Below, piece by piece: positions 5,161 through 43,872 of a DNA stretch of 64,000 nt (position 1 is the stretch's first letter; each line of letters opens with the position of its first letter). The notes under the pieces are model-generated. The model worked only from the letters and a program-made list of their open reading frames with translations. It did not search any database and was not told the DNA's origin. A program made the translations under genes and the position numbers. This DNA is from Obrimoposthia wandeli (lineage: Eukaryota). The DNA is taken from contig CDROCS010000777.1 of NCBI GenBank assembly GCA_977020255.1, positions 868,001-932,000 of the forward strand, read 5' to 3'.

Positions 5161-5328
5161 GGTATCCTTCACTCTTAATCATTTTGATTTCATACGTTCA
5201 TAATATTAAATTGATGACGAATCTGTGCTTAATATTTGCTAAACTTATTTTTATAAAATGAAAATAAGTAACATCAAAAATGATTAAAAGTCTTGTTTTA
5301 AGTTTAAATTATATGCTTTAAATTAAAT

Positions 5329-23229: not shown

Positions 23230-23850
23230 TTTCTTGTATTTTTCAACAATGGACAGTTTATTATATTCATTGTTAAATGGTTTTGAGTATGAATTTCAAA
23301 TATTCCATCACCGTTATTTAGAAACATTTGACCAACCTGCTGTCATCATCATTGTACCCAAGGTGCATATGCAATGTATTGTTCAGGAACCCAAAGGGAA
23401 CTCAAGGCATAATGTGTAATTCAAATATAAAATTTCGACCCGGCCTATTATACATGCTCACTGCACCAGTCTCAAAAAGATCATATAAATAATCGGCTTT
23501 TATGAGAGAATAATATTTTGCTGGTAATTAGAACCTCAAATTATATTCTGGCAGTAGTCAGTAGCCAATGAAGCTTTATTAAATATTCACTTAAACTAGC
23601 CCTTTTCTTTATTTTAAATATAATTCTGAGCTTAGCTTAAAACTTTCTGTAAGCAATTTAATATATAGTCTGGAATATTAAACAGTAAAGAATTTTGAAA
23701 ATCATGTTTTAATGAAATAATTACATTAGTAAGGTATTTTCTCATTAAATAAATCGTTTTGATATAACTGTTGCATGTTATTATCACTTTTTTAATTTGA
23801 CAGTTTCTTGTAATGTTTTCTTTGGGGACGCAACCAATATTTTTCATTGG
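23230..23850 (-). mobile_element. Decayed hAT-related (DUF659-like) element, copy 3, next to the Gypsy insertion
   Basis: 23555-23700 is similar to 17600-17740 (GCCAATG..TTAAATATTCACTT..ACTAGC; TATTAAACAGTAAGAATTTTGAAAAT). Confidence 0.45.
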
Positions 23851-24067
23851 AGTTTCTAAATTAATTATGTTTTCTCAAACATATATGTGTTAAGGTTGAG
23901 AATTAAGAAAATTAAATATTTTAGTTGATTAAATACTAAAATAAAAAAGCCTTGAAAGCAAGGTCGAAAATCAAATTAAAATATTAAGTTGAATTTTAGA
24001 AGTAAAATTAGTGAAATATTAGGGTAAAATTAGGAGGACCACGAAGGTCGTGTATTATGCGAAAATG

Positions 24068-24075
24068 TATAAAAG
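24068..24075 (+). promoter_or_regulatory. Candidate LTR TATA box (TATAAAAG)
   Basis: Consensus TATA. The last ATG before 27271 lies immediately upstream (24065), consistent with a TSS near 24100. Confidence 0.55.
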
Positions 24076-24453
24076 TTAAACTAATTAACCCAAAAGGGAC
24101 AATATCAAAAACAAAAACTTAATTAGAAGAAAAACGGTTAATTACAACCGTCGCTCAAGGATCCCAAAGGTAAGCACTTTTGCGTGCAGTAATTAAGATT
24201 TGTTTTCCAGCTGTCATTGACTGACAGAATCCAAAATCACTAGAAGAAATCGACCAGGAAACCCAAAGCAGCTGCCAGTTGATTGGCAACTAGATTCCTA
24301 CTTAAGAAGGGCCATTTCAGGGAACAAACACAATTTCGGAAGCACTCCGGAATCGACTGAAAACAAGAAATCGACTTCTAGGTAACTTTTAGTGTAAGAA
24401 GTTATAAAAATTGAAATTATCTAGGAAAATTGAAGTGAATACCTGAACTGTAA

Positions 24454-24801
24454 CCAACTGATTAAAGAATTGAGAAACGATTCCAACTGATTAAAGAATT
24501 GAGAAACGATTCCAACTGATTAAAGAATTGAGAAACGATTCCAACTGATTAAAGAATTGAGAAACGATTCCAACTGATTAAAGAATTGAGAAACGATTCC
24601 AACTGATTAAAGAATTGAGAAACGATTCCAACTGATTAAAGAATTGAGAAACGATTCCAACTGATTAAAGAATTGAGAAACGATTCCAACTGATTAAAGA
24701 ATTGAGAAACGATTCCAACTGATTGAAGAATTGAGAAACGATTCCAACTGATTAAAGAATTGAGAAACGATTCCAACTGATTGAAGAATTGAGAAACGAT
24801 T
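24454..24801. repeat. 29-bp tandem repeat x12 inside the LTR (also at ~42478-42825)
   Basis: Unit CCAACTGATT(A/G)AAGAATTGAGAAACGATT; 348 bp = 12 x 29. Confidence 0.95.
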
Positions 24802-24908
24802 CCAACTGATTGAACGATTCTGCCAGGCTCGCAAATACCACATACGGACCCTACACCGGACGTCCCACGAGTTGCTGTAACTGGTAAGCACACAGATTAG
24901 GTCCATTC

Positions 24909-25345
24909 ATTGCCCCTAGTAGGCAATTAGGTTATTTCATTACCCCTAGTTGGTAATTCTACGTTTTTAAAATAATAAGCAAATTCATTACCCCTAGCTG
25001 GTAATTAGGACCTGTGTCTCTTTAACACAATCATTACCCCTAGTTGGTAATTAGGATCGGAACTTTATTCATTGTCCCCAGCGACAATTAGGAAACTTAC
25101 CAGACGTTTTTTCCGTAAGATTCATTGTCCCTAGCTGGCAATTAGGTTCCTTCATTGCCCCTAGTTGGTAATTCGGATAAATATTCATTGTCCCTAGTAG
25201 ACAATTCGGTAAGACTCATTGTCCACTAGCTGACAATTCGATTCGCACATTGTCCGTAGTTGACAATTAGGAGCAAGTTTTATTGTCATCTGGACAATTA
25301 GGATTTTAGGAGATCCCTTGTCTACAGTAGACAATTTGGGTCGAA
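24909..25345 (+). repeat. Array of 12 short stem-loops in the LTR (duplicated in the 3' LTR)
   Basis: ATT(GCC/ACC/GTC)-N5-8-(GGC/GGT/GAC)AAT; most loops resemble CCTAG(T/C)(A/T). Confidence 0.85.
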
Positions 25346-25605
25346 CACACAGAGAGAGTAAGGAACAAAGAAATATTTGGTTAGAGATAAGAAGTAGGAG
25401 CGAAGAAAATTAAGAGAGTTGCGTTATAGATTAACCAACCTGAGTAAGAAGACTAAACCTAAGAAACTTAATCACCTGAACGTAAAATCAATACGTGGTT
25501 CATCCCCACTTCTTGTAGAGACTCACAGAAGTCCTTTAGGAATTTTATCATACTTTTTAGAAATACGTACATAAACGTATTGTGGTGTTAGTTACGTGAA
25601 TTTTG

Positions 25606-25611
25606 AATAAA
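25606..25611 (+). promoter_or_regulatory. Candidate polyadenylation signal AATAAA (functional copy expected in the 3' LTR)
   Basis: AATAAA ~205 nt before the LTR end; position fits an R/U5 border. Confidence 0.45.
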
Positions 25612-25824
25612 CAATTTCCTACATTAGAACAAGTTGTTTTACACCCTTCAGACTAAGAGACATCAAATCAATACCTTCAGATAGTACAAGAGATTAGGCA
25701 ACCATAACACTAAGTAGGCCACGACCAACTTTAAGACCTGCTTCTAATCGAACTCACGTTGGGGCCCTCCGCACACTAAGAGGCTCTATACCAAGTTTCG
25801 TATAGAAACCCCAACATATTAAAG

Positions 25825-25843
25825 TGGTGCCCCGAGTGAGGAT
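25825..25843 (+). other. Primer-binding site complementary to elongator tRNA-Met
   Basis: TGGTGCCCCGAGTGAGGAT, 8 nt after the LTR, matches 18/19 the complement of the animal tRNA-Met(e) 3' end as I recall it (TGGTGCCCCGTGTGAGGAT). Confidence 0.85.
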
Positions 25844-25869
25844 AGCTCGTCGGACACAGCGAATTCACG

Positions 25870-26852
25870 TAGAATAAGTTCAGATAAGTTTTGGATAATT
25901 GAGAATAAGTTTCAGGTAAATAGAATAAGTTCAGATAAGTTGCGGATAATTGAGAATAAGTTTCAGGTAAATAGAATAAGTACAGATATTAAGAATAAGT
26001 TTCAGATATTGAGAATAAGTTTCAGATATTAAGAATAAGTTTCAGATATTGAGAATAAGTTTCAGATAAATTGAGAATAAGTTTCAGATAAATTGAGAAT
26101 AAGTTTCAGCAGAAGAATATAGACAATTGAGAATAAGTTTCAGAAGAAGATATAAGTAAATTGAGTTAAGAATTTGATAAGTTTTAAGAAATCGGGTAGA
26201 TTTGTTCCTCGAAGTTAAGAATTTGATAAGTTTTTGAGAAATCGAGTAGATTTGTTCCTCGAAGTTAAGAATTTGATAAGTGTTAAGAAATCGGGTAGAT
26301 TTGTTCCTCAAAGTTAAGAATTTGATAAGTGTTGAGAAATCGGGTAGATTTGTTCCTCGAAGTTAAGAATTTGATAAGTTTTTGAGAAATCGAGTAGATT
26401 TGTTCCTCGAAGTTAAGAATTTGATAAGTGTTAAGAAATCGGGTAGATTTGTTCCTCGAAGTTAAGAATTTGATAAGTGTTGAGAAATCGGGTAGATTTG
26501 TTCCTCGAAGTTAAGAATTTGATAAGTTTTTGAGAAATCGAGTAGATTTGTTCCTCGAAGTTAAGAATTTGATAAGTGTTAAGAAATCGGGTAGATTTGT
26601 TCCTCGAAGTTAAGAATTTGATAAGTGTTGAGAAGTCGAGTGGATTTGTTCCTCGAGTCAGTAAATTTTATAAGTGAGAATCGAGTGGATTGATACTCGA
26701 AGTAATTAATTGAATAAGTTAAGTCGGGAGACTCTGTCCTCGAACTAATTAAAAAGATAAAATCGTAAGTGAATTTGATAAAGTGAGAATCGAGTGGATT
26801 GATACTCGAAGTAATTAATTGAATAGGTTAAGTCGGGAGACTCTGTCCTCGA
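25870..26852 (+). repeat. Leader tandem repeats: ~20-bp GAGAATAAGTTTCAGATATT units, 49-50-bp unit x10, ~109-bp unit x2
   Basis: Read directly from the sequence; the 49-50-bp units contain TCG(A/G)GTAGATTTGTTCCTCGA. Confidence 0.9.
25913..25972 (+). promoter_or_regulatory. Two candidate major splice donors (CAG|GTAAAT at 25915/16 and 25966/67)
   Basis: Consensus-like 5' splice sites ~70 and ~125 nt after the PBS, the position of retroviral major donors. Confidence 0.5.
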
Positions 26853-27150
26853 ACTAATTAAAGAGATAAAAAGTCGTAAAATAAGAATTGTGAAATAAGA
26901 TAAAAATAATAAGTGAATTGATATCGTAAACGAATACATAATTGATAAGACAACGGATAATAGAAAAGGACCCGCGTATAATACTAGAAGACAAAGTCAG
27001 ATCCCCAAGGAAGAGATAAATAATAATAAAGTTAACCGAATTGAACAGGTTCCCCAAACAGATAACAAAGTAACAGAAAAGACTAGAGTCGAAGAAAACG
27101 TATCAGAAAGAGACGTTGATCAATCAGCGGTTTCAACCGGCAGTTTTAAT

Positions 27151-29631
27151 TTGACTGAATTATTTGGTGACATAGACCAAGAAGAATTTGAAATTGCCAA
27201 TCCAGTAGTGATTGAGGAAGTTCCATTGAATAATATTGCAGAAATAGTTGAAGACGATATAGTTGCAGATATGGCTCAACCAGGAGCTCAAGCAGATATT
27301 AATGCAGGAAATAATGTAGGTGACATGAATGCCGAGCAGTTGGCACAAGCTTTAAATGCGACGTTGAGACCCAATTTTTCAGGATCATTGCAGATTACAA
27401 AGTTTAAAGGAGATGAGGAAAGTATTTGTGACTTCCTCGCAGAATATTCGAGTTGTGCAGATGTTCAAGGATGGAACGATAAAGAAAAATGTATCAGAGT
27501 ACAGGCACATTTAACCGGATTAGCACTTGAAGTGTATAAACATTTGACAGAAGCAGAACGTTTGGACTGGCCAACGTTAGAAAATGCTTTTATTGGAAAA
27601 TTGGTATTAGGAGATTTAGCCAAAGTAAATAAGCGACTCATGAGAGAACGGAAACAGAAACATGATGAAGGCGTGAATGAATACGCGTATGTTTTGAGAA
27701 CCTTGGCCGCAAGAGCGTACCCAAGAAGAATAATGAGAAATCAGGACGGTAATCCTGTAGCTCCAGAAGCACAAGCAGCGGAAAATGACCGGAACCAAAA
27801 TGAAATGGCAGAGGTCTTGTTAGATATATTTAGAGGAGGATTGAAAAAGGATATTAAAGTGTTATTAGCGGTATCGGATACAAATGATTTTGATAACGCC
27901 GTGCGAAAGGCGAGAGAGATCGAGAAAAATATAAAGAATAATGCAGCATTGGCAATCTACGCAATGACTGCAGGTGACGACGATAAGACAAAGGTCTTCG
28001 TGAATAAAACAGAACCGAGTAATTTTCAGAATCGAAATTGTGGACAAAATAAGTTTGAAAAAGTAGATGAATCCAGTAACGGAAATAGAGATAATTTCCG
28101 AAGTAGGAATCGAGATGATTCGAGAGGTAGAAATAATAGTGAGTCTTGGAACAGGAATCGAGATGATTCAAGAGGTAGAAATAATAATGATTCGTGGAAT
28201 AGAAATAGAGATGATTCCAGGAATAGATTTAATAGAGATAATTCAGGAAATCGCCAACCTTGGAGAGGAGACGATAGGAATTATAACGCCAACAGAGGAG
28301 AGCGAAGTGACTCTCGATTTGGAAATAATACAGGAAATAGTGACGGAAGATTCAATAATCGAGGAAGCGGGTTTGAATCGAATTTCCGAAGAAATGATTT
28401 TAGAGGACGCTATGATAATAGACAGAATAGTCGTCGAGTACAGTTCGAAGATGAACAAAATAAGATAGATATTCGAGGGAGAATAATGTGTTACACGTGT
28501 AAACAAATGGGTCACTATTCGAGAGACTGTACGAGAAGTAAAGAGTTCGGAACTAACAGATTTGGAAATAATAATTTCGGTAATAATAATTTTGGAAATA
28601 ATTATAGAGGATATAATTCACCTCCGCCATGGAATAGAGGTGGTGGATATACTCCACAGCCATGGAGACTGAATAATCAGTATACAGATAGACAACAGTC
28701 ACCAGGTAGATATAATAACTATGCAGATAGACAGCAAGGAGCTGAGAGATACAGTAATTACGTAGGACAGCAAGGAGCTGAGAGATATAATAATTCCGGT
28801 AGATATAATAATAATAATGTCGACAAGACAAATAGTCGAGAGAGTTCGCCGAAACCGAAAGGAAATTTTAGTTATGTAAGCGATGACAGTGATAGGAATC
28901 GCGAGACCGAGCTTCGACGCGAAATAGATTTTGAAGATAGTGATAGTAAATTTGAACGAATGTTGGGAATAATTAAAGATTCACCACATACAAAGATGGC
29001 GAATTCATCTACGTTGTCGAAACAAGAGAGAAGTCTACACTCGAGAGAAGAGATGAATGATTTAATGAATAGAATATTAGAAGCGTATGAGACACCAATA
29101 GAGAAAACGTGTAACGCACAACCTATGACTGATCATGTGGAAGCAGCGAGAAATGCTACGAGTATGGAAAATGTAAAAAAGATAATTAGTGAAGCTAAGG
29201 AGACGTTAAATCAACCGTTAGATGAAACGAGTGAAGCTCCAGAAGTTCTGGCCAAATTGCAAACAATTAAAGTGCACCGATTGGAAGAAGTGCGTGCAGA
29301 ATTGGTTAAACATAGTCATGATAACTTGGGTTACAAAGAAGTACCCCGAGGACTACTGAAAGGTTATGGTCGTTATGTACAGAGATCAAACCAAAAAGGA
29401 ACGATGAAAATTTCACTTCGATTAATTTCCGGACAGATAATACATGAAAAACTTAACGTGTATCAAACAATGAAAACGATTCGGAAAAAGTTAGCCGAGA
29501 AACTTGAAATTGATGGAATGAATATGTTGTTCCATTATAAAGGGAGATCACTAGATGATGAGGACGTACCAGTCGAGTTTGGATATCCGATAGGAAATGA
29601 ATTAGAGGAAAAATTGATGTCATCACTGTAG
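27151..29631 (+). CDS. gag: Gag: capsid-like domain, R/N/G-rich region, CCHC knuckle, C-terminal ubiquitin-like domain
   Basis: Retrotransposon-gag-like core (WPTLENAF..YAYVLRTLAARAYP..FRGGLKKDIK) and CYTCKQMGHYSRDC at 28489-28530. First ATG is 27271; the frame is open from 26917. Confidence 0.9.
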   Translation: MTELFGDIDQEEFEIANPVVIEEVPLNNIAEIVEDDIVADMAQPGAQADINAGNNVGDMNAEQLAQALNATLRPNFSGSLQITKFKGDEESICDFLAEYSSCADVQGWNDKEKCIRVQAHLTGLALEVYKHLTEAERLDWPTLENAFIGKLVLGDLAKVNKRLMRERKQKHDEGVNEYAYVLRTLAARAYPRRIMRNQDGNPVAPEAQAAENDRNQNEMAEVLLDIFRGGLKKDIKVLLAVSDTNDFDNAVRKAREIEKNIKNNAALAIYAMTAGDDDKTKVFVNKTEPSNFQNRNCGQNKFEKVDESSNGNRDNFRSRNRDDSRGRNNSESWNRNRDDSRGRNNNDSWNRNRDDSRNRFNRDNSGNRQPWRGDDRNYNANRGERSDSRFGNNTGNSDGRFNNRGSGFESNFRRNDFRGRYDNRQNSRRVQFEDEQNKIDIRGRIMCYTCKQMGHYSRDCTRSKEFGTNRFGNNNFGNNNFGNNYRGYNSPPPWNRGGGYTPQPWRLNNQYTDRQQSPGRYNNYADRQQGAERYSNYVGQQGAERYNNSGRYNNNNVDKTNSRESSPKPKGNFSYVSDDSDRNRETELRREIDFEDSDSKFERMLGIIKDSPHTKMANSSTLSKQERSLHSREEMNDLMNRILEAYETPIEKTCNAQPMTDHVEAARNATSMENVKKIISEAKETLNQPLDETSEAPEVLAKLQTIKVHRLEEVRAELVKHSHDNLGYKEVPRGLLKGYGRYVQRSNQKGTMKISLRLISGQIIHEKLNVYQTMKTIRKKLAEKLEIDGMNMLFHYKGRSLDDEDVPVEFGYPIGNELEEKLMSSL

Positions 29632-29672
29632 GACGTCAAGAGTTAGTAGATAATGAAGGATTAACCGAGATA

Positions 29673-30647
29673 TTGAATTCTGCGTTAGAAATGATAAAAA
29701 CGCCTATAGAAATTTTAGACAGTTCAAGCGAAAGCGGAGATAATGATGTAGCTGAAGTTTGGAACAAGACATCCACACCAGAACCGTACGTAGCTGAATT
29801 ACAAGACATGAATTTAGAAAATGAGTTGACAACTCCAGTGGTTGAGGTGCCACCAGAACCAGATATAATTCCAATCAGACAAGATGAAGTCACGGATACA
29901 GCCAACCAAGTGAGACAAAACGAAACCGTAACACAACTAGTAGGAGAAGACGAAGTCTCCGAGATTGTAGATTTGGATTCACCAATTTGGCATGCCGCAT
30001 ACAAAGATAGACAAGCAGAGCAAATGATGCGACAAAATGAAGAGATTGGCCATGAAGAAGGACCAAGTCAAGAGATACAGTATAATGGTGAAACGTATGA
30101 TCCAGGAGAGAATCAAACTGAGTATCAGTATTTTCGAAGAGGGCCTGGAAGACCTAGAAAAGGTGAAAGTATATTACGAAATGTTCTAACTGCACCACAA
30201 ACTGATGAAGAAAGACATCTAAGTATTGGACAGTTAGCGGCGTCATTAGAGCAGTATAGTGCAGAGAGGAATGAAGATATCAGAGGTGATATGAATTCGG
30301 AAACTCCAAGTAGTAAAGATATACTTACGGGAATTCTCAGGCAAGTGAAGCCGAAGTTGTTCAAAATGTACAGAGATGAAACAACCGATATAACAGACAA
30401 TTTGACTAAAGCAGTCAGATCACAGATGTCTGCAGTAAAGAGAATGACCGCGAATCATGTATACCATGCATCGATAGATAGATTTTATGACGGTGAAGTT
30501 TTAGCGAGATTATGTGGAAACCAGACTACAAATAAAAAGTTAATTACAGCGATCACATATCTATGTTTCCAATTGACGGAACGAACGAGCCAACCTCACG
30601 AAGTCAAACAAGGAATAAATGAAGCGATGTATTTGATCGAGAAGTAA
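29673..30647 (+). CDS. Acidic/AT-hook/putative BEN-domain segment, probably a continuation of Gag in the -1 frame
   Basis: 324-aa ORF in the element's codon style; AT-hook RRGPGRPRKG (30135-30164); frame open from 29601, overlapping the ORF1 end. Confidence 0.75.
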   Translation: MNSALEMIKTPIEILDSSSESGDNDVAEVWNKTSTPEPYVAELQDMNLENELTTPVVEVPPEPDIIPIRQDEVTDTANQVRQNETVTQLVGEDEVSEIVDLDSPIWHAAYKDRQAEQMMRQNEEIGHEEGPSQEIQYNGETYDPGENQTEYQYFRRGPGRPRKGESILRNVLTAPQTDEERHLSIGQLAASLEQYSAERNEDIRGDMNSETPSSKDILTGILRQVKPKLFKMYRDETTDITDNLTKAVRSQMSAVKRMTANHVYHASIDRFYDGEVLARLCGNQTTNKKLITAITYLCFQLTERTSQPHEVKQGINEAMYLIEK

Positions 30648-30673
30648 CTTTCGAAGATCCAAGACTTAAAAAA

Positions 30674-32311
30674 TTGGCAAAAAAGGGACTTTTTGCTATA
30701 AAAAAGGATGGTAAAGACGTAATTAAATGCCACAAGTGTAAAAAAGAACGAATTATAGACAGATATACTCTTGAGCTACCTAAGAAAATTTTACATCATG
30801 AATTTTGCGAATTTTGTACTTTTAAAAACAAAATAAAGCAAAAAGAACAGAAAACCGAATGTATAATCGAATACCAAATCACACGAAAAGAGATTTTGGC
30901 TCAACAAGACACACCGGTAGTGTCATTCGTGAGAAGGTTATATCCAAAAGAAGCAGAAAGAATCAGAGAATTGGTAGAATTAAAAATAAAAACTACGCGA
31001 AACGGATACGGATCGATTTTTGAATTACTGCGAGATAAAGATGACAGTACAATTGAAACAAAAGAGAAAGAGTACATAAATGAACTAGAATACGTACTAG
31101 AAGATCCGGAATGCGCAGTTTGCATGGTCAACAAAATAGAAGTTGCCTTTCTACCATGCGGACATGTAAGAACATGTCGGAGATGTGCGAATGAAATGGT
31201 ATCATGTCCGATTTGTCGAAGAATAATAGATCGACAAGTGAGAAACATTAGATTTCACTATCCAAACATAGGAAGTGGACTGACAGAGTGTAATAATTCG
31301 ATAAATACAATATACCATATGGGAAACATAAATGGAGCACAGCGACCAGCAGCTATCATTAGAGTAAATAATTTAAGAGTAAAAGCCTTAATTGATACAG
31401 GTGCTGTAGCTTCGATAGTAAGTGAAGACTGTTTGACAGAGGAACAGAAACGAACAATGGCAGAACCAGATGAATTCTTGGTATCGGTCAATGGAGACCC
31501 TGTAAAAGTGACGGGAATATTACCATGTACATTTATTATTGGACGTAATACGATCACTATACCAGTTAGAATTATGAAAGAATGTCCTGAACCTACAATT
31601 TTAGGAATGGATGTACTATCACAACTTAAAGGGATAAGTATTGATTTACAAGATCCAAGATTGAAGGATAGCACATCAAACAGACAAATAAACCAAATTG
31701 ATGTAATTATAGAGAATCCTATAAAAATCGGTAAAAGATCACAATTTCTCATTCAAGGTCACACATTATCAGAAGATAAAGGACCAGTTGTGTTCGAACC
31801 ATCACGAGATTTCATAGAGAAATACGAATTACCAGTTGTGAGTACAGTATGCCTGATCGAAAACCACAAAATACCAGTTAGACTGATGAATACAACCAAC
31901 AATGACATCCTATTATACAGAGGAATGAGGTTGGGAAAGATAGCACAGATGGAGAATTCCACTGTATGCGCTATGAAACTCGATAAAGATACGAATGATT
32001 ACGAAGAAATAGTAATCCAATCAGAAAGACTGACAACTAGAGAAAAGAAACAATTACTTGATCTAATACATAAATTTCCAAAAGTAATTGCAAAAAATCC
32101 ATATGACATAGGAGAAACACCTGTCATAAAACATACAATACCACTGACAGAAGACAAAGTAGTCAGAAGAAGACCATACCGAGTACCATTACAATTACAA
32201 GATGAAGTAAAAAGTCAGATCGAAGATATGTCTAAAACAGGAGTAATTAGACCGAGTTTTTCGCCATTCTCAGCACCTGTGGTGTTGGTAAAAAGAAGGA
32301 TGGGAAAATGA
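30674..32311 (+). CDS. pol: BIR-like + IAP-type RING + aspartic protease + start of RT
   Basis: C3HC4 RING at 31112-31216, protease LIDTGAVASIVS (DTG at 31394), RT N-terminus RRRPYRVP..IRPSFSPFSAPVVLVK. Frame open from 30623. Confidence 0.9.
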   Translation: MAKKGLFAIKKDGKDVIKCHKCKKERIIDRYTLELPKKILHHEFCEFCTFKNKIKQKEQKTECIIEYQITRKEILAQQDTPVVSFVRRLYPKEAERIRELVELKIKTTRNGYGSIFELLRDKDDSTIETKEKEYINELEYVLEDPECAVCMVNKIEVAFLPCGHVRTCRRCANEMVSCPICRRIIDRQVRNIRFHYPNIGSGLTECNNSINTIYHMGNINGAQRPAAIIRVNNLRVKALIDTGAVASIVSEDCLTEEQKRTMAEPDEFLVSVNGDPVKVTGILPCTFIIGRNTITIPVRIMKECPEPTILGMDVLSQLKGISIDLQDPRLKDSTSNRQINQIDVIIENPIKIGKRSQFLIQGHTLSEDKGPVVFEPSRDFIEKYELPVVSTVCLIENHKIPVRLMNTTNNDILLYRGMRLGKIAQMENSTVCAMKLDKDTNDYEEIVIQSERLTTREKKQLLDLIHKFPKVIAKNPYDIGETPVIKHTIPLTEDKVVRRRPYRVPLQLQDEVKSQIEDMSKTGVIRPSFSPFSAPVVLVKRRMGK

Positions 32312-35300
32312 GATTCTGTATAGATTTCAGAGAACTGAACAAGATCACAAGAAAAGATGTGTATCCATTACCTAGAATCGAAGAGATGCTCGATAAATTG
32401 GGTAATTCAGATTATTTTACGACATTGGATTTGCAGAGTGGATACTGGCAAATCGAGATAGAGGAAGAAGATAAACACAAAACAGCCTTTTCCTGCGGAG
32501 ATGGATTATACGAATGCGAAAAGATGCCATTCGGACTGACAGGAGCTCCAGCAACATTTCAGCGTTGCATGAATTTTGTACTCGCATCGTGTGCAAACAC
32601 GATGGTGTATATTGATGACATAATAATATTTTCGAAAACGTTCGAAGAACATCTAAAAAATCTTGAAGTTGTATTTAAAAGACTGGAAAACGCTAAATTA
32701 AAAGTTAAACCTACAAAATGTGTATGGGCTAAAGAGCGAGTAACATTTTTAGGACATATAGTATCGAAAGAAGGCATTCGTCCTGATCCGGCAAAGATCG
32801 AGAAAGTAAAAGCGCATTTAGCGCCAAAGACTGTTAAGGAGATACAGAGTTTTTTAGGTCTTGCGAATTATTATAGACGATTTGTTGAACATTTTTCAGA
32901 TATAGCAACACCATTGAGAAAGTTGACGAGAAAAGATGAGAAGTTCATATGGGGAGAAGAAGCCCAACAAGCGTTCGAGCATTTAAAAGAAAGACTGATA
33001 AAAGCACCAATATTAGCGTTTCCAGATATAAACCGACAGTTCATACTCATGACAGATGCAAGTAACTATGCTGTAGGAGCAGTATTGGGACAAGAGGATG
33101 ACGAAGGAAGAGAACACGTCATTGCGTATGCGAGTAGAGGATTAAACAGAGCCGAAAGAGGATACTCTGTTATCGAAAAGGAATGTCTAGCCATAGTGTA
33201 TTCATGTAGACAGTACAGACACTATTTGCTAGGACAAAAAGTATTCCTGTATACAGATCACAAACCACTACAGTTCTTATATAAACATAGAGATGAGATG
33301 AGTAGATTAAACAGATGGTTTCTAAAATTGGCCGAATTCGATCTAGAAATCCGTTATAGAACCGGAAAGTCGAATGGCAACGCAGATTGTTTATCGAGAT
33401 TGACAAATGTAGATGAGAAAGGAAACATAATTCCAGAAGAAGATGAAACCAATGACCAAAAAGGAGAAGCAAATCTACTGACGATTTTGCTAAAGACGGG
33501 TAAAATAGACAAAGAGATCATCAAAGAACAGAAAGAAGATGAAGAACTGAGTCTAATCAAAGAATTGCTGGTGAAAGGAGATCTAAACGATGAAATGACG
33601 AAAAAATACTCGATAAAAGAAGGAATCTTGTATATTGTCAATAATGTCGGAAAGATAGTAGTAGTAATTCCGAAGTCATTGAAAACAGCAGTGATGATCC
33701 AGTATCACGACGGAACACTGGGAGGACATCTGTCAGGGCGAAAGACAATAGCCAGAATCAAAGAGAAGTACCATTGGGATGGTATGGAAGACGACATAAA
33801 ACAATGGTGTAAACAATGTAAAGTATGTTTAACCAGAAAAGACACCGGAACTCGTACTAAAGTTCCGTTGAAACCAATGCCAGTTCCCTTGGCACCAATG
33901 GAATTCACAGCGATGGATATATTGGGACCATTGAGAGAATCAAGTAAAGGAAACAAGTATGTCATAGTATTTACGGACTACATGACGAGATGGGTAGAAG
34001 CATATCCCATGCAGAACCAGAAAGCTGAAACAATAGCGCAAATCTTAGTGGAAGAGATAATATTTCGATACGGAGTGCCTAGAAAGTTGTTAACGGATCA
34101 AGGTAAGAACTTCACTGGAGAAGTCATAAAAGCAGTATCGAAGATATTCGGAATCATGAAGTTACAAACTTCACCATATCACCCACAGACAGATGGTCTG
34201 GTGGAAAGGTTTAATAAAACTTTATGTATGATGGTACAATCCTATTGCTCAGACAAGCAAGAGGATTGGGATAAATATTTACCTTCATGTTTATATGCTT
34301 ACAGGAATTCAGTTCGAGAGGCGACAGGTCACACACCATTCTATCTGATGTATCTCAGACAGAACAATATGCCAATGGATCTGGAGTGGACCGAGCCAAC
34401 ATCCCAGTACCTAGAAACTGAACAATACATTGTCGTCATGAAGGAAAGATTACAAGATGCTTGGACCAAAGCCGGATTGAAGTTGAAATTCAATCAAGAA
34501 GGTTACAAGGAACAATACGACAAAAAAGCAAAACCACATGAATTTAGAGTCGGAGATCAAGTGATGATATTTTATCCAGTCATCGAACCAGGTCTATCGT
34601 TTAAACTTCATAGACCATACAAAGGACCATACAAGGTGATCCAGACAACCTCAACAAATTTGAAAGTAATCAACGAAGAGAATCGGAACAAAGAACCGAT
34701 GATTGTACATGCAAATCGATGCAAATTAGTACCAAATAAAGATAATGCGTCACGATATGAGTTAAGATCACAGAAATCGAAGCCAAATACCAATACCATT
34801 AAACTTACACGAATGGTAAGTGATCGGAACTACATAAACATGATGACGAGTGGTAGCGAGAAAAAACCAGCGAGAATTGGTATGCTCAGAATGAAGTGCC
34901 AAGAGGAAAAGGAAGTAATCCGACACATCGCACCACAAGAGATATTAGAAGAAGACGAAGAGATAATAGTTGTTTTCGAAAAAACACAACCGACAGATGT
35001 GGCTAAAGAAGTCATTGTGAAAGATGCACTGACAAACGAATTTCTATGCGAACTTAGAGTGTCATATTACGACGGAAATACATTAGTCGCATCACTTTAT
35101 CAAAATTCCAATGTGTTTACGACTGAGAAAGTGATAATCGAAATCACATTGACACCAAACATAGTTGCATGGCAGAACTATGACAGTACTGAAGCAGGAC
35201 TAGCCAGTCAGGAAGAGAAGGAACCGGCCGGTGGTCACATACTGCATGGTACACCAAAAAGACTCAAACAAGAATACCACGATGTAATAATGGTATTACG

Positions 35301-38300
35301 TAATTCACATGGGAAAAGAGATATCATGAGAGTCCATTTAATCGACGCTGACACTGAAAAGATAATTTGTCAGATGGACACCAAATACTTTGATGGAAAG
35401 ACAATTGTATGTTGTATACCAGAATCTCACCGATTAGAGACAGATCAAACGGAAGTATCTGTAAGGTTGAGCGTAATAGAAGGATTCCATTCGCCAACCC
35501 ATCCGGAAGTGACTAACAATAAAATCATCAAAGCAACGGCAGAATTACGCATTGACAGCGGATACCGGAAGTGGGAAGCTAAAAATAAAAAGCCACAAAG
35601 AATCAATATGATCCGAGAACAAGTGACCAGCTCAATCCAGCCAAAATATCATGCTGAAATAGTATCATCCGCGCCAAGTGTAATTACATCGATAAACGAC
35701 GAAATTATAATTTTACTAAAAAATCGATGGCCGTCATCAACCGAGATACGAGTAAACTTAATTAATTATGCGAAGACACCGATATCTAAGCTGAATGTTA
35801 CCTATTTTGATGGATTGTCCATCATGGGTAAATTGGAAACAATTGTCATGTGCTATGGAGCACAGTTCCAAGTTGAGATACTTAAAGATAGTGTAATACC
35901 GTATCCGATTCACAAATACGAAGGGGAAATCAACCCAATTATTCTAACACCTTCATTAATTTCAGTTCAGACAGACATACCAGAATACCCTTCGAGCGAG
36001 TCTAGTGAAGACAGCGAACCGGAAAGTAACGATACAGAATCAACAGAATCCGAAGATAACATAATAGAGCGATTCGGAAGAACCATGGAGGTTGAATTCG
36101 CTAAAGAGAACAGAAAAAGACAAAACATAGAATTCGTGAAACAGAATATACAAGAAAGACGAATTAAATCTGCAGAAGAGACCGAGTCGGAAGAAGACTC
36201 AACAAAGGAACAGACATCAGAGACAAAGATGAATATCCCTCCAGCAATACGAATGCTGAGAGGAAAGAAACTGGCAAAACTAACTAACATCGACGACCAG
36301 ATAGAGAAGAGATTAGAAAGACTAAAACTTGAAGAGTCAGAATTAATGCCACCAATGAGTGAGATCATTCCAGGTAAGTTATACCTCGGAAATGTGGAGG
36401 ATGCCACAGATGAAAAGAAACTGTTGGAACAAGGGATAACATATGTGATCAACGTTACAATGAATCACAAATCGCAATATCAGACGATCAGAGCTATGAC
36501 ATTAAGAGTAAAAGACTCAATGGACGCTAATCTTCTCGAATGGTTCGTAGAAACAAACGAAATACTTCACAGAGAACTCCGAAACCAAGGAAAAGTGTTG
36601 GTACATTGTCAGAAAGGAATTTCTCGATCAGCAACCCTAGTATTAGCATATCTAATAAAGACTAGACGAATGCAGGTACTAGAAGCGTTAAAATACCTAC
36701 AGGAGAGAAGAAGTATTGCAAACCCAAATCTTAATTTTTTGGGACAGTTGGCAAATTACCAACTTCTGTTGCAAGAACAAAGACGGATGGACGACATTCC
36801 TGAGGATCCAAAGGAAAAGAATTTCCTCCAAGCATTATCACTGACTGGGTTATTTTTAGCTGGAGTCGACAAAATTACACAGATAATGCCAAAAGTATTT
36901 TTATGTCATCCAGGAGATATAGATACTGCTGGATTAAAGTTCCACAGTATCAACCGAGTAATCAACATTGTTGAAGTCGGAAACGAGATAATTAGTCTGT
37001 GTCAAAATACTGAAGATGACACCACTCGATACATACATGCTTCCAATCGAGAGATAAACGATGCGCAACAACATCTGACGAAATTGACTCAAACCATCCA
37101 AGCTGAAGTCACAGAAGGAAACGGCGTTCTGATATATCAGAAAAAAGGTACAATGTTAGCGCCTACCATAGGTGTATCCTTGTTGGTAGAGTACCATGGT
37201 CACACGCCAGAAGAAGCGATGGTCTACATCAAACAGAATAGACCAAATACGGAATTCAAACCGTTACTCGTTCGAGAAATAGAGAAATACACCGAAAAGA
37301 GGAAGCAACAACGAGAAACAAATGAAGCTACAACAACAGTGCCCAGCTTTCAATACCAAAGATTGCTAGCGATAGGCTTGTTAAGTTGTTTAATGCCGAT
37401 AACGGGAGCACAGGAGATAGGCTCCAACCACGGAAATAGTTCCTGGTTCAACGAAATCCACAATTACACCATACAGTACCATACGCCGGCACTGATGATG
37501 CTATTAGTGTTGTTAGGACTAATTGATGTGTGGATCATCCGAAAATGTCTTCGATCTATGAGAACCGACAGTAAAAGATTTCAGTTTGTAAAGATGAAAA
37601 GACCAAATGGACCAACGAACAAAGTGCTTGTGTATCTAGACGAAAGGATCGAAGATAACATAGTAAATGAAGCGATATTTTACCCACAAAACAGAATACT
37701 GAAGCAATTCCGAATAGATTATGAAGCTGACCGACAACGCACACTTGACCAAATATCAACAACATTCGCCGGATGCAAGCGAAGAAAACGAGTTGTAAAG
37801 GAAATACAAAAAGATGCTGATACAAAAGGACCAACGTATATATTCAACGGCGATGTCATCAAAACACGTGAGTATGGAAGTAAGAGAGTGATAATTGAAA
37901 CGATGGAAGGACATAAAACATGCTTGTCCGCCAAAAATGGATTCGGAAAGTTGACGATACAAGGTAAACCAGTACAGTTGATTATCGGAAGAGATGGAAT
38001 CGAGGAGATGTCAAAACAACGACAAACAACAAAACGAACCAATCAGAAACAGATATCTCTCAAACGATTGATAATTAAAACCCTTTGCAAAAGGTCAGTC
38101 AAGGCCCTGTGCACCGTTGCACAAGGATTGATTTATGGAGTAGTAATTGGATTGGTACTGCAAGCCATGCCAACCAGTAAAGCCGAATTGATGACACTAT
38201 CCGAATATAATTTACATTTGAGAAATCTAGACAACACCCTAGAAATAATCAAGACATCCCACAGTAGAGCCGTGATGATCATGTGTGTAAAAGGATGTCC

Positions 38301-40026
38301 AGGACGAATGTGTATAGTCCCAGCAACCGAAATGATAACACTTAATGGACATTATGGAGTTAGTGTTGTCACATGTGAAGACTACATATTTGGACAAACT
38401 AAAATAGTGCTTCTCAGTGACACGTCCAACCAAAGTGCACACAAATTTAAGATATTAACCATCAAGAGTAAAGGAATACCAGCAGTACGTTATGGTATTC
38501 TAGAATTAGTTAATCCAATACTGGCACTGATCATTGGATTTATAATATTAATATTACTCATCTTGTTTTGTTGTTCAAAGATAGAGTCGAGATCAAAAAA
38601 GAAACGTCATGATCTCGCAAGACGAACAGGTCAAATGAACTTACAGAAATTCAACACAATCATACCAAGACCACCATTTCTAGATGAACCAGCACCAGAG
38701 TACCAGCCAACGATATATGAACACATAGAGGAAAGACCGTACTATATGAGTAATTTGACTTGTTTCATTGAAGTTCCTGAGTTTAGGAATCGAACGATCA
38801 TAGGAATCATGCTGATCGTACAAATCACCACTACCAAGGCTAGTTATGAGATCATGATCAGTAAATGGAGACAAGACGTAATACGGGCAATATACATAGA
38901 AATTCCCTTACTAAAAACAAATCACGTAGTAGACATTCATCTACAGACGTCAGCAACTGACAATATCGATCAGAAATTGTATGTCATCCGACAGGTCAGA
39001 ATAAAAATCGACCAAAATACACCCGTTTACAATTTAATATTATTGCATCATGAAAGAGTGTTATACCTACGGATAACAATATCAAAGAGGAAGCGGATTA
39101 TCCAAAGTATCCGAACAAAGTCATTAATATTACCTAGAGATGAGCGCATCTGGAAAATTGTTGACAGGATTATGATCACAGGTAGACGACGTAAAGCCGT
39201 ATGGAATTCCGTTAGGATATTTTTCAGATTGCTAGAAACTGACAGCGTGACAGTAATGTGTCCCAACCCAGATGGCGTAATCAGATTCGAAATCCAAAGC
39301 CAAATGTTAGTACCACATTTTAACACAGAATGTCTGTGTAATCGAATTGCCAGTAATTCTACAGAGACCTCGACCATAATCATGATAATAACAGGTGAAA
39401 TATTCTACATAACTCTAAGATACCAGAACCGTCGATTTCGCAGATACGGTATAAGTATCAAACCCAGGAAAATCATTCCCAGAAGACCAATCCTAGTCAA
39501 AAAGAAGGCAAAGGTAATCGAAAGTAAACGACATTCCAAGAAACCGACAGTGATCAAAACAAAGACAGAAGCGAAAGAAAAAGAGTCCAATCCCAGAAAC
39601 CAAAGTACAATTATTAAGAGGACAAGAGTGAGGGGAACGATCCCACTAGATCCCAAACATCATTTCCAATCCAAAATAATAATACCTGTTCCATCAGAAA
39701 CAAAACACCCAAATCCCCGAATTTTTAGAAAATCGGACATAATACATGGAAACCGATCAAAACCCATGGAAATATCATTCGAACCGACAAACAACAAAAT
39801 GAAGTATGATTATAAAACATCAGACAGCGGAATAACAGCAGTCAATGCCCTAATTGGAATGGCCGTAGTGTCAACAGCGGTGGTTCTACTTACAATCGTG
39901 TGCGTAAAAGGCAGTCAAGTATGCCCAGGAATACGACGAAAATGCGAAGGATTGCGATGCTGTGACACACCCATCATGGAGGAAGTGGAATTACGACCCT
40001 TACCTCCACCTCCCATCAAGATATGA
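32308..40026 (+). CDS. pol: Pol (RT, RNase H, integrase) fused to ~1730 aa of accessory domains (3 Ig-like repeats, DSP, pseudo-DSP, membrane region)
   Basis: YIDD at 32608; RNase H TDAS..EKECLAI..YTDH; IN HHCC, D-D-E core and GPY; no stop until 40026. Confidence 0.97.
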   Translation: MRFCIDFRELNKITRKDVYPLPRIEEMLDKLGNSDYFTTLDLQSGYWQIEIEEEDKHKTAFSCGDGLYECEKMPFGLTGAPATFQRCMNFVLASCANTMVYIDDIIIFSKTFEEHLKNLEVVFKRLENAKLKVKPTKCVWAKERVTFLGHIVSKEGIRPDPAKIEKVKAHLAPKTVKEIQSFLGLANYYRRFVEHFSDIATPLRKLTRKDEKFIWGEEAQQAFEHLKERLIKAPILAFPDINRQFILMTDASNYAVGAVLGQEDDEGREHVIAYASRGLNRAERGYSVIEKECLAIVYSCRQYRHYLLGQKVFLYTDHKPLQFLYKHRDEMSRLNRWFLKLAEFDLEIRYRTGKSNGNADCLSRLTNVDEKGNIIPEEDETNDQKGEANLLTILLKTGKIDKEIIKEQKEDEELSLIKELLVKGDLNDEMTKKYSIKEGILYIVNNVGKIVVVIPKSLKTAVMIQYHDGTLGGHLSGRKTIARIKEKYHWDGMEDDIKQWCKQCKVCLTRKDTGTRTKVPLKPMPVPLAPMEFTAMDILGPLRESSKGNKYVIVFTDYMTRWVEAYPMQNQKAETIAQILVEEIIFRYGVPRKLLTDQGKNFTGEVIKAVSKIFGIMKLQTSPYHPQTDGLVERFNKTLCMMVQSYCSDKQEDWDKYLPSCLYAYRNSVREATGHTPFYLMYLRQNNMPMDLEWTEPTSQYLETEQYIVVMKERLQDAWTKAGLKLKFNQEGYKEQYDKKAKPHEFRVGDQVMIFYPVIEPGLSFKLHRPYKGPYKVIQTTSTNLKVINEENRNKEPMIVHANRCKLVPNKDNASRYELRSQKSKPNTNTIKLTRMVSDRNYINMMTSGSEKKPARIGMLRMKCQEEKEVIRHIAPQEILEEDEEIIVVFEKTQPTDVAKEVIVKDALTNEFLCELRVSYYDGNTLVASLYQNSNVFTTEKVIIEITLTPNIVAWQNYDSTEAGLASQEEKEPAGGHILHGTPKRLKQEYHDVIMVLRNSHGKRDIMRVHLIDADTEKIICQMDTKYFDGKTIVCCIPESHRLETDQTEVSVRLSVIEGFHSPTHPEVTNNKIIKATAELRIDSGYRKWEAKNKKPQRINMIREQVTSSIQPKYHAEIVSSAPSVITSINDEIIILLKNRWPSSTEIRVNLINYAKTPISKLNVTYFDGLSIMGKLETIVMCYGAQFQVEILKDSVIPYPIHKYEGEINPIILTPSLISVQTDIPEYPSSESSEDSEPESNDTESTESEDNIIERFGRTMEVEFAKENRKRQNIEFVKQNIQERRIKSAEETESEEDSTKEQTSETKMNIPPAIRMLRGKKLAKLTNIDDQIEKRLERLKLEESELMPPMSEIIPGKLYLGNVEDATDEKKLLEQGITYVINVTMNHKSQYQTIRAMTLRVKDSMDANLLEWFVETNEILHRELRNQGKVLVHCQKGISRSATLVLAYLIKTRRMQVLEALKYLQERRSIANPNLNFLGQLANYQLLLQEQRRMDDIPEDPKEKNFLQALSLTGLFLAGVDKITQIMPKVFLCHPGDIDTAGLKFHSINRVINIVEVGNEIISLCQNTEDDTTRYIHASNREINDAQQHLTKLTQTIQAEVTEGNGVLIYQKKGTMLAPTIGVSLLVEYHGHTPEEAMVYIKQNRPNTEFKPLLVREIEKYTEKRKQQRETNEATTTVPSFQYQRLLAIGLLSCLMPITGAQEIGSNHGNSSWFNEIHNYTIQYHTPALMMLLVLLGLIDVWIIRKCLRSMRTDSKRFQFVKMKRPNGPTNKVLVYLDERIEDNIVNEAIFYPQNRILKQFRIDYEADRQRTLDQISTTFAGCKRRKRVVKEIQKDADTKGPTYIFNGDVIKTREYGSKRVIIETMEGHKTCLSAKNGFGKLTIQGKPVQLIIGRDGIEEMSKQRQTTKRTNQKQISLKRLIIKTLCKRSVKALCTVAQGLIYGVVIGLVLQAMPTSKAELMTLSEYNLHLRNLDNTLEIIKTSHSRAVMIMCVKGCPGRMCIVPATEMITLNGHYGVSVVTCEDYIFGQTKIVLLSDTSNQSAHKFKILTIKSKGIPAVRYGILELVNPILALIIGFIILILLILFCCSKIESRSKKKRHDLARRTGQMNLQKFNTIIPRPPFLDEPAPEYQPTIYEHIEERPYYMSNLTCFIEVPEFRNRTIIGIMLIVQITTTKASYEIMISKWRQDVIRAIYIEIPLLKTNHVVDIHLQTSATDNIDQKLYVIRQVRIKIDQNTPVYNLILLHHERVLYLRITISKRKRIIQSIRTKSLILPRDERIWKIVDRIMITGRRRKAVWNSVRIFFRLLETDSVTVMCPNPDGVIRFEIQSQMLVPHFNTECLCNRIASNSTETSTIIMIITGEIFYITLRYQNRRFRRYGISIKPRKIIPRRPILVKKKAKVIESKRHSKKPTVIKTKTEAKEKESNPRNQSTIIKRTRVRGTIPLDPKHHFQSKIIIPVPSETKHPNPRIFRKSDIIHGNRSKPMEISFEPTNNKMKYDYKTSDSGITAVNALIGMAVVSTAVVLLTIVCVKGSQVCPGIRRKCEGLRCCDTPIMEEVELRPLPPPPIKI
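36355..36775 (+). other. Dual-specificity phosphatase domain (catalytic motif intact) within the polyprotein
   Basis: SEIIPGKLYLG..GITYVINVT..VLVHCQKGISRSATLVLAYL..RRSIANPNLNFLGQL; HCxxGxxRS at 36604-36630. Confidence 0.95.
36874..37290 (+). other. Second DSP-fold domain lacking the catalytic Cys/Arg (pseudophosphatase)
   Basis: ITQIMPKVFL..INRVINIV..GNGVLIYQKKGTMLAPTIGVSLLVEYHGHTPEEAMVYIKQNRP parallels domain 1, with the HCxxGxxR motif degenerate. Confidence 0.8.
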
Positions 40027-40149
40027 TGAGTCAGAGGAGGTTGTAGATAAATTAGTGTGTGAAATATGTAGAAATATCTAGAAGCGATTGTACAAATAGT
40101 AGCAGTATATAAAACTCATGTAGAAATTAATCATCATCATGTATTTAGA

Positions 40150-40449
40150 ATGGCCGAAGAATGCCCAATATGTTTAGAAGATCTAACCGAACGAAGAACA
40201 AGACCCGAAACCTGCAACCATTTACACCACGAGGAATGTTTATCGACATGGATCAGAACTTATGGACAGTTCGGACACCCAACATACCCTCGTTGCCCTA
40301 TATGCAGAAGACAATTCGCAAGATTCGTCATGTTAGAACCCAACCAAAGGGATGTATATGTACAGGTGGTATTCTGCTGGAAGAATTTCGGAGAGTGTTG
40401 GTGTTATTACTGTTTGTCAGATCGACAAAATCAGACCACTTTTGTGTAA
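40150..40449 (+). CDS. Small RING-H2 protein 1 with C-terminal Cys cluster
   Basis: CPIC..CNHLHHEEC..W..CPIC, then CWKNFGECWCYYC. Confidence 0.9.
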   Translation: MAEECPICLEDLTERRTRPETCNHLHHEECLSTWIRTYGQFGHPTYPRCPICRRQFARFVMLEPNQRDVYVQVVFCWKNFGECWCYYCLSDRQNQTTFV

Positions 40450-40509
40450 AGATCACACAACCACCAGTCCTCAATCGAGCCCAAATTCAACATCAACCCT
40501 CCCACAGTA

Positions 40510-40815
40510 ATGTCTGGAGAATGTTCCATCTGCTACGAGAGCATCGTGGACTTCTACACCAAGCCCAACAACTGCGACCACCTTTTCCACGTCGAATGCC
40601 TCGAGACGTGGATCCCCATCGCAAACAGCAACAACCCCCTCGACTTCCCAACCTGCCCGATGTGCAGAGCGACCTTCTCAGTACACTACGTGTACAACCA
40701 AGACATCCTCCAAGCAGTGGTACCCATCGTACACTGCTGGAAAACCATCTGCGATTGCTGGTGCTCGTTCTGCGTGGAAGAGCGAAGCACAGGCCAGCCC
40801 AATCCCCAACAATAA
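40510..40815 (+). CDS. Small RING-H2 protein 2 (paralogue of protein 1)
   Basis: CSIC..CDHLFHVEC..W..CPMC, then CWKTICDCWCSFC. Confidence 0.9.
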   Translation: MSGECSICYESIVDFYTKPNNCDHLFHVECLETWIPIANSNNPLDFPTCPMCRATFSVHYVYNQDILQAVVPIVHCWKTICDCWCSFCVEERSTGQPNPQQ

Positions 40816-41148
40816 TCGAAGGTAACTTTCTGACTTGAACATGACATCATGAACTACCCTGTGTATCGCATACCGCGATAAATTAGCTACCATAATTGTA
40901 ATCATAATTATATAATCTTGTGAACTGTAAATTGACCATTACCATTTTTATGTATGATGTTTAACTGAAATTGTAATTATTATACTGAATTTCTAAAAAG
41001 ACAATTTTTATGCTTAGTGTGAATGCGTAAACATGCCTAAAATCGAAACAAAACTCGGTAGGATTAGATAACTAAGGATTCATTTTGAAACAAAATTTAA
41101 ATTAACGATGAGAACGGTGAACCCCAAATTGAAAGGAGTCATTTTCTC

Positions 41149-41649
41149 ATGCAGATGTTGTGCTCCGTATGCATGGAGAAGATTTGGGCGGCATCAGCAT
41201 CCCCTGTCGGCTGCCGCCACAAGTTCCACGAATCCTGCCTATATACTTGGGCCCGACTTCGACCCGGACAAGTCAATTGCCCCTATTGCCGCACTCCCTT
41301 CGCGGAATGGACACTACAGTGTCGAGGGCGCCACAAGGGCACCCATTCGCTCACCAGCTGTATTGGTGGCGAGCACTGCCAGTGCCCCGACTGTATCGCG
41401 CGCCGTCGCGATGCAAAACTCGCCCTCCGCGAGAAATACCGGTCAACCCGTGACCCCCGCTCATGGCAGCGTGGCCGTCAAATATGGCTCAAGAATCGCG
41501 GAGTACACGGGCGGTACACGACCATTTTTCACCCGAGCCAACACCTCACCATGCGCCAGCAGATGATACTGTACGATGGCGGCCCACCATCGTATCCAGA
41601 ACTACCACTGGAGCAGGTCTTGCTGTTTTTGAGAGACCGGAACAATTGA
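41149..41649 (+). CDS. Small RING-H2 protein 3 with basic C-terminal extension (true start may be ATG 41155)
   Basis: CSVC..CRHKFHESC..W..CPYC, then CIGGEHCQCPDC. Confidence 0.9.
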   Translation: MQMLCSVCMEKIWAASASPVGCRHKFHESCLYTWARLRPGQVNCPYCRTPFAEWTLQCRGRHKGTHSLTSCIGGEHCQCPDCIARRRDAKLALREKYRSTRDPRSWQRGRQIWLKNRGVHGRYTTIFHPSQHLTMRQQMILYDGGPPSYPELPLEQVLLFLRDRNN

Positions 41650-41912
41650 CAAATCCCTGACAATCACCCTTGATCCTTTCCCTTGTATAATTTTTTGTTG
41701 TCGTAGTAATAATGTATAAATTGAGACATGCTCCAACTTATGCATTATAATTTCCCACTAAAAAACCGGGTTTTGGAAAATTTTTTTTTGGGCATGTTTG
41801 TTGAGGTTGAATGATTGATTTTGTAGGGATGAACCTAAAATCAACAGCCAAAGGCTTATTAAGTAAAATCGATACGTTCCGGGGACGTAACTTTTTTGGA
41901 ACCCCCGAGGTA

Positions 41913-43839: not shown

Positions 43840-43872
43840 TATGAAACTCTTTTTTATTTGGTTTATATTGTT

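Follow-up and report, generated by a model that had tools for sequence, protein, structure and literature searches.

What role is played by the segments complementary to tRNA-Met that accompany the primer binding site (PBS) of a giant LTR retrotransposon in Obrimoposthia wandeli? An earlier note on the window, i.e., the whole stretch of 64,000 nucleotides analysed here, had listed four such segments besides the PBS, had likened them to the primer activation signal (PAS) of HIV and to the extended primer contacts of Ty1 and Ty3, and had proposed that they might engage most of the tRNA.

The Element and Its Relatives

The element in the window is a Ty3/gypsy LTR retrotransposon of 19,952 bp (~20 kb), surrounded by the target site duplication (TSD) TATG at 23884-23887 and 43840-43843. 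This assignment follows from the succession gag-CCHC, RING, protease, RT, RNase H, integrase, phosphatases, and RING, in which the domain order PR-RT-RH-IN is present. The pol frame continues for ~1,870 aa beyond the integrase and holds there two dual-specificity phosphatase domains (DSPc); a literature search for gypsy LTR retrotransposons with dual specificity phosphatase found no paper combining the two. The PBS begins 8 nt past the LTR and is complementary to the 3′ end of the host tRNA at 18/18 positions plus one. The usual spacer between LTR and PBS measures 0–3 nt, and with the longer one of 8 nt the integrase would face a longer overhang.

The polypurine tract check revealed no classic purine run in the 70 nt upstream of 41913. 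Positions 41890-41912 carry a T run, GGA(A)C, and a C run, and the same trio is found on the minus strand at 62910-62925. A 42-nt adjacent inverted repeat (62828-62911, minus strand) opens an LTR-like segment. The U3 of the 5′ LTR contains 29-nt tandem repeats and palindromic repeats centred on CCCTAG (24470-24820 and 24900-25340), the leader contains 20- and 49-nt tandem repeats (25870-26700), and a PiggyBac-type transposase fragment (DDE_Tnp_1_7) is located at 5386-6033. An Rfam scan of 23800-27000 gave 0 matches.

Close relatives, whose RT is 98–99% identical to that of the window element, are L316 and L317. L316 encodes a mononegavirus-type fusion protein between Gag and protease (1215-6447), and L317 carries, likewise between Gag and protease, BIR (6416-8734); BIR and RING occur in L317 and RING in the window copy, which at 30640 is devoid of ~3.3 kb spanning the fusion-protein region. 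Planarian Burro elements, according to the available portion of their description (PMC6431247), are giant gypsy elements of more than 30 kb present in thousands of copies. The present elements share with them the thousands of copies and, in the relatives, the Gag-fusion protein-protease layout, BIR, and RING, whereas their length of 20 kb and the two DSPc domains after the integrase are different; MATH, BCL2, and ankyrin were not detected in the ORFs scanned. Because the length stays below 30 kb, the element is filed as Burro-like rather than as Burro, a likeness of described layout. The same portion of that account is silent on PBS and U5.

Complementarity to the Primer tRNA

The reference for all comparisons is the tRNA-Met(CAT) gene of the assembly (G000) of the host, an AT-rich eukaryote, found on the minus strand of L032:485-557 in a tandem array; we take it to be an elongator from its sequence type. 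Tandem arrays of eukaryote-type tRNA genes are seen on contigs C2252, C5734, and C365 of the assembly, and bacterial-type tRNA clusters, some tandemly repeated, on many contigs (C506, C253, and C309).

All motifs of the earlier note are present where it had placed them, and its complementarity counts are exact against the host gene, including those of the PBS (19/19) and of 25673-25682 (10/10). The T-arm match indeed covers 12/12 positions (25747-25758 versus tRNA 48-59), of which only the 9-nt core facing tRNA 48-56 is conserved. The solo LTR, which had been described as dissimilar, resembles the main LTR only over ~105 nt, at 69%, and nevertheless retains the two boxes, with 11/11 and 9/9 matches to the host tRNA-Met (Table 1). 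The boxes are located 60–150 nt upstream of the PBS. A poly(A)-like signal lies upstream of them, and its AATAAAC is kept in family-1 copies; for this family only, it suggests that the boxes belong to U5.

Table 1. Coordinates of the features in the window, counted from its first letter (tRNA: host tRNA-Met).
Feature	Position	Strand	Remarks
Solo LTR, family 2	8686-9948	+	TSD ATAA; boxes 9807-9817 and 9882-9890; stem 9890-9896/9941-9947
5′ LTR (TG...CA) of the Ty3/gypsy element	23888-25816	+	99.8% identity to 3′ LTR over 1930 nt
Putative poly(A) signal and GU-rich tract	25606-25640	+	AATAAA 25606-25611; GU-rich tract 25633-25640
Duplicate anticodon-arm box	25645-25661	+	15/17 versus tRNA 30-46; family-1 specific
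Main anticodon-stem/variable-loop box	25673-25682	+	ACCTTCAGAT; 10/10 versus tRNA 38-47
GAGAY extension of anticodon box	25690-25694	+	Complementary to tRNA 30-34
Predicted helix P1, between the boxes	25713-25742	+	25713-25718 with 25737-25742
T-arm box (PAS-like)	25750-25758	+	GAACTCACG; complementary to tRNA 48-56
Predicted terminal domain	25758-25815	+	Stem 25758-25764/25809-25815 around hairpins 25766-25783 and 25785-25806
Spacer, LTR end to PBS	25817-25824	+	8 nt in 30/30 copies; 5 nt in family 3
PBS, 18 nt (+1)	25825-25843	+	19/19 versus 3′ end of tRNA-Met(CAT) with CCA
Downstream T-arm-like motif	25860-25869	+	9/10 versus tRNA 48-57; weakly conserved
Internal ORFs	26917-41649	+	gag with CCHC; RING and protease; RT-RH-IN and two DSPc; RING
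RT-RH-IN and two DSPc frame	32251-40026	+	
Last RING	41101-41649	+	
3′ LTR	41913-43839	+	Same boxes at 43668, 43696, and 43770
Further family-2 LTR end	62464-62690	-	Anticodon box intact (62592-62601); T box with mismatches

Statistical Support and Conservation

The score used throughout adds up the best two exact matches to nt 1-57 of the tRNA; both this statistic and the cut-off of 16 were picked after the data had been seen. The segment 25600-25816 scores 20, as compared to 11.9 ± 1.3 in its dinucleotide shuffles, in which values of at least 20 were reached in 0/5000. The host tRNA-Met is the best of 40 tRNAs, the 39 decoys giving a best score of 17 and a mean of 12.9; these decoys are bacterial-type tRNAs, the sole yield of the Rfam tRNA search of the host assembly. 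Among 588 tiles of the window, the score of 20 is found at three LTR ends, and the fourth LTR end follows with 17, tied with one tile in pol.

The exact PBS 17-mer occurs at 5421 sites in the host assembly. From 66 PBS-flanking sequences (the window and 65 loci, one of them duplicated), 27 representatives at 90% identity were obtained, which make up three LTR families. Compared with the Gag of the window, that of family 2 is ~60–70% and that of family 3 ~50% identical over the best-aligned part. The representatives have a mean score of 16.8 (at least 16 in 18/27). Identity to the window copy is 0.88 for ACCTTCAGAT and 0.87 for GAACTCACG versus 0.52 at other U5 positions, and in the 16 distant copies the two boxes keep 0.89 and 0.88 versus a background of 0.45. 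When U5 9-mers are ranked by conservation, two overlapping windows on the anticodon box, the top one with an identity of 0.88–0.97, occupy the first places and the T box the third; TAGGCCA is conserved about equally to the boxes in the U5s of the host assembly.

The T box could be placed in 23/27 representatives, where each position facing tRNA 48-56 is matched in 19–23 of the 23, whereas the flanking tRNA nt 57 and nt 47 are matched in 2/23 and 0/23. The GAGAY extension is found in 15/23 representatives, versus 3.5% by chance, behind spacers that are family specific. Both boxes at 55–85 nt spacing recur 23,628 times in the host assembly and 0 times in the control, a count of copies and not of independent events. 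That boxes complementary to tRNA-Met exist beyond chance and are conserved is thus confirmed.

Not every motif of the earlier note shared this fate. The box at 25645, real in the window, turned out to be a duplicate restricted to family 1 (identity of 0.35 in distant copies). The motif at 25860 is present but kept no better than its surroundings (0.59/0.53/0.20; near background), occurs in 13/27 representatives, and is absent from family 3; it is more likely a hairpin arm. Moreover, 25645 and 25673 compete for one tRNA segment and 25747 and 25860 for another, and for this reason four additive boxes are not supported. Engagement of most of the tRNA is not supported either, as the contacts reach no further than nt 30-76 and no match to the D arm is conserved. 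The earlier interpretation is partly supported and becomes limited to a pair of boxes and to the 3′ half of the tRNA; its comparison with HIV PAS and Ty1-type contacts is well supported, at the level of sequence, by the conservation, the tRNA specificity, and the recurrence in other elements.

Predicted RNA Folding

Two structures are predicted around the boxes. Helix P1 shows two-sided changes in 2/7 pairs, in 10 cells over 17 sequences, and its partner segments form a duplex in most representatives. In the terminal domain, the GTTGGGG/CCCCAAC stem postulated earlier can indeed pair (91% of cells in 17 copies), with no two-sided change in support; CCCAACA doubles as the integrase end, and at this position the sequence of the family-3 stem is a different one.

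In the minimum-energy fold without tRNA, 25753-25767 (CTCAC and a G run) is paired with the PBS, the overall z being -0.63. The CTCAC-GTGAG pairing reaches a probability of at least 0.5 in 10/22 representatives, whereas the window copy has 0.10 on a shorter segment. The boxes are not consistently single-stranded in the predicted folds, the anticodon box being 0.22–0.72 unpaired. With unmodified bases, the tRNA duplexes are predicted at -14.4 kcal/mol for the T box and -13.9 kcal/mol for the anticodon box, and the isolated tRNA arms at -3.8 (T) and -1.3 kcal/mol (anticodon). Given the order anticodon box, T box, PBS found in the host assembly, the three helices with the tRNA would mutually cross and hence may form in turn.

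Boxes in Other Lineages

A scan of metagenomes for the PBS gave 120 loci, comprising 40 LTR-like junctions, 60 chance hits, and 20 loci dropped as short or ambiguous. Junctions were considered LTR-like when CA occurred within 10 nt, GC was under 42%, and at least 250 nt were available upstream, and two were added by hand; they are LTR-like junctions and not proven LTRs, and 37/40 come from one assembly. Their mean score is 16.0 (at least 16 in 23/40), versus 12.0 for the chance 17-mer hits (0/60). L134 and L090, which belong to other records, also match tRNA 27-38 and 30-38. No similarity between the metagenome loci and the U5s of the host assembly was detected by blastn, and tblastn with the window Gag found no match in the short flanks of these loci.

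Group A consists of 36 loci (28 representatives, mean identity 62%), in which the T box precedes the anticodon box; group B consists of 7 loci, and in some of them the boxes are nearly contiguous ahead of a terminal stem. The order is colinear with the tRNA in both groups, whereas in the host assembly it is reversed. In the 28 group-A representatives, 47/50 departures over tRNA 30-36 and 48-56 keep G-U pairing, and the six G/T columns in which a transition would break the pair show 0/168 changes versus a background of 9–11%. These counts are inflated by shared ancestry, the T box is there also a hairpin with compensatory changes, and several other motifs of group A show similar conservation. 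The boxes of the host assembly lack the G-U asymmetry (G>A 8, T>C 5). The metagenome LTR-like ends L087, L090, and L142 have within U5 a second copy resembling the PBS, and L090 has a mimic of the tRNA end close to the LTR end.

The host assembly contains a sister lineage (RT ~60% identical) whose PBS is complementary to tRNA-Trp, with 975 sites; in a quick tree the Met and Trp lineages were grouped with three unnamed proteins only. The U5s of the Trp-primed lineage score 10.6 against tRNA-Met (at least 16 in 0/30) and 10.8 against tRNA-Trp. As the Met boxes are absent from 30/30 of them, the boxes go with the Met primer. No Trp-specific replacement was found in these U5s, and no lineage in which the boxes switched to match another primer tRNA. 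A GRRCAC motif after the PBS (25844-25860 in the window) occurs in 13/27 Met-primed and 21/30 Trp-primed representatives and is possibly an ancestral signal shared by both lineages. Its interpretation as covariation of the Trp lineage, suggested by its being the best of the tRNA panel, was rejected on a failed control, because the Met-primed copies pair with tRNA-Trp equally (-10.3 versus -10.5 kcal/mol).

Ten viral loci whose PBS is that for tRNA-Trp served as positive control; we take most of them to be of the avian sarcoma/leukosis type. The motif CGA(A/G)CAC, corresponding to tRNA-Trp 51-57, lies in them 31–39 nt upstream of the PBS, as an exact 7-nt T-arm match in 5 and as a G-U variant in 3. 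The tRNA-Met PBS gave 0 matches in viral contigs. A search for the tRNA-Lys PBS gave 4, of which at most one is LTR-like.

A Chimeric Copy

One copy, L031/L393, is a 1,896-bp unit without a coding region, with the TSD ATTT around the whole unit. It begins with an LTR and the PBS, after which the tRNA is copied as far as nt 27 (47/50); U5 then resumes where the anticodon box ends and continues up to the LTR end. It is the sole match of this kind in the host assembly, 1 among 5421 PBS sites. Such an arrangement would be left if plus-strand synthesis read through the primer and was then transferred to the complement of the box; stops of read-through are treated in the accessible part of a review (PMC13191261). 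The copy shows that the homology between box and tRNA can be used, which is no demonstration of selection. In the Trp lineage of the host assembly, the PBS of L350, L352, and L354 continues as a copy of the tRNA up to nt ~38-40.

Proposed Mechanism and Alternatives

The boxes probably pair with the primer tRNA-Met in the reverse-transcription initiation complex, in the manner of the extended contacts of HIV. The boxes would be carried in the U5 of the genomic RNA, where Gag/NC would anneal tRNA 59-76 to the PBS and thereby unzip the acceptor stem and the T stem. GAACTCACG could then capture the 5′ strand of the T arm set free by this step (tRNA 48-56); the conservation of the T box ends at tRNA 57 and 47, which are the limits of just that strand. 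The anticodon stem, together with the variable loop, would be captured by ACCTTCAGAT and the following GAGAY, with opening of the weak anticodon stem, while P1 and the terminal stem may fold the leader in such a way that the boxes reach the tRNA; the 8-nt spacer might, speculatively, supply the needed reach. These contacts would stabilise the unfolded primer and help to select this tRNA. They may also gate initiation, because CTCAC, together with the G run behind it, is able to bind the PBS before annealing and must then swap partners.

Pairing with tRNA-Met may serve packaging or capture, dimerisation, end-to-end bridging, or strand transfer instead of initiation, and all sequence evidence for pairing fits this explanation as well; all the same, it is unlikely. 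The Drosophila gypsy element offers a parallel, since its 11-nt second site bridges the RNA ends and is unneeded for cDNA synthesis in the part of the report available (PMC1635307), and the boundary between R and U5 is here derived for family 1 only. The strand-transfer version requires that the boxes belong to R or lie at the 3′ end of the RNA, whereas they precede the PBS closely and, in family 1, lie past the poly(A)-like signal; besides, the T box does not extend beyond the T-arm strand that annealing frees. The L031 chimera, in which a box has been the acceptor of a DNA-level transfer, is a point in favor, although a single case without a coding region. A rather improbable explanation is that the motifs are kept because proteins bind them or because the RNA of the element folds through them, CTCAC and the G run being an anti-PBS arm whose match to the tRNA follows from the self-complementary T stem. 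The minimum-energy fold, the CTCAC-GTGAG probabilities in nearly half of the representatives, and the compensatory changes in the group-A hairpin speak for it, as does a mimic of the tRNA 3′ end that follows the T box in family 3. However, the window copy pairs poorly on the shorter segment, the partners of the conserved GAA and of the final G are tRNA 54-56 and 48 and not the PBS, and neither the anticodon box nor the presence of the boxes in three unrelated folds is explained.

It is very improbable that the boxes are neutral remnants which primer read-through has copied into the LTR and which such events renew from time to time. Read-through copies do exist for tRNA-Met (L031) and tRNA-Trp (L350, L352, and L354), and groups A and B keep the colinear order; nonetheless, the idea is largely refuted by conservation, the boxes being far more conserved than their neighbours with family-specific mismatches and insertions kept, and neither the G-U-compatible variation of group A nor the reversed order in the host assembly agrees with it. 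A Pol III B box on the minus strand, i.e., a TFIIIC site acting at the DNA level, has next to no probability as an account of the T box. The invariant positions of the B box are tRNA 57, 58, and 61, and, even if the reverse complement of the T box overlaps the tRNA T-loop motif, this candidate was rejected, the equivalents of 57 and 58 not being conserved (2/23 and 7/23) and the anticodon box being left unexplained.

A wider reading is more tentative. Ty3/gypsy lineages primed by elongator tRNA-Met might carry a modular primer cradle in U5, in which the T box locks the PBS and then swaps to the T stem of the tRNA as the primer anneals, whereas the second box reads the anticodon arm to select the tRNA. 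The modules would be movable, separate lineages would have rearranged them or gained them anew from copies left by primer read-through, and they would represent a general and so far unannotated cis element of animal LTR retrotransposons. Were this true, natural variation would settle whether PAS-type contacts are selected.

Comparison with Known Systems

Extra primer contacts have so far been described for a few retroviruses and for the yeast Ty elements. In a literature search of limited coverage, no description of such boxes was found for Burro-like or elongator-Met-primed elements. With the present boxes, such contacts are extended to an unusual primer and to gypsy elements that are giant and of animal type; the boxes also offer a short RNA for direct testing, and suggest a simple scan applicable to all LTR families, that of U5 against the PBS-matched tRNA. 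Since the boxes are retained in tens of thousands of natural LTR copies and in separate lineages whose U5 folds differ, the contacts appear to be selected.

The sources cited below are considered within the portions accessible. HIV-1 uses the same three tRNA segments (PMC11251516), and the PAS itself is disputed (PMC3185550). As here, all contacts lie upstream of an 18-nt PBS, and the PAS can be occluded by an intramolecular helix. Unlike HIV-1, the present case concerns Ty3/gypsy and tRNA-Met, with longer boxes (9 and 10–17 nt) that are known from sequence comparison, and the order anticodon box to T box in the host assembly is the reverse of that in HIV. Avian sarcoma/leukosis virus has a U5-TΨC interaction with tRNA-Trp (PMC13191261), the contact that the positive control above recovered, and a U5 box facing the T arm some 30–70 nt upstream of the PBS is common to both systems; the viral match is 7 nt long (51-57), whereas here it is 9 nt (48-56) and is joined by a second box, for the anticodon arm.

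Among retrotransposons, boxes 0, 1, and 2.1 of Ty1 and the bipartite PBS of Ty3 pair with tRNAi-Met (PMC3592414, PMC5371799), so that in these elements, too, the RNA pairs with the primer outside the acceptor stem. Ty1 has a 10-nt PBS, and the second part of the Ty3 PBS is ~4800 nt away in U3, with the T and D arms being used; in contrast, the present element combines a full 18-nt PBS with upstream boxes within the LTR, which address the anticodon arm and no D arm. The Drosophila gypsy element (PMC1635307) is likewise of metazoan origin and has a second site, which faces the anticodon stem and the T stem of tRNA-Lys2. That site is a single one of 11 nt near the RNA 3′ end, whereas here two boxes are found near the PBS and are conserved across families.
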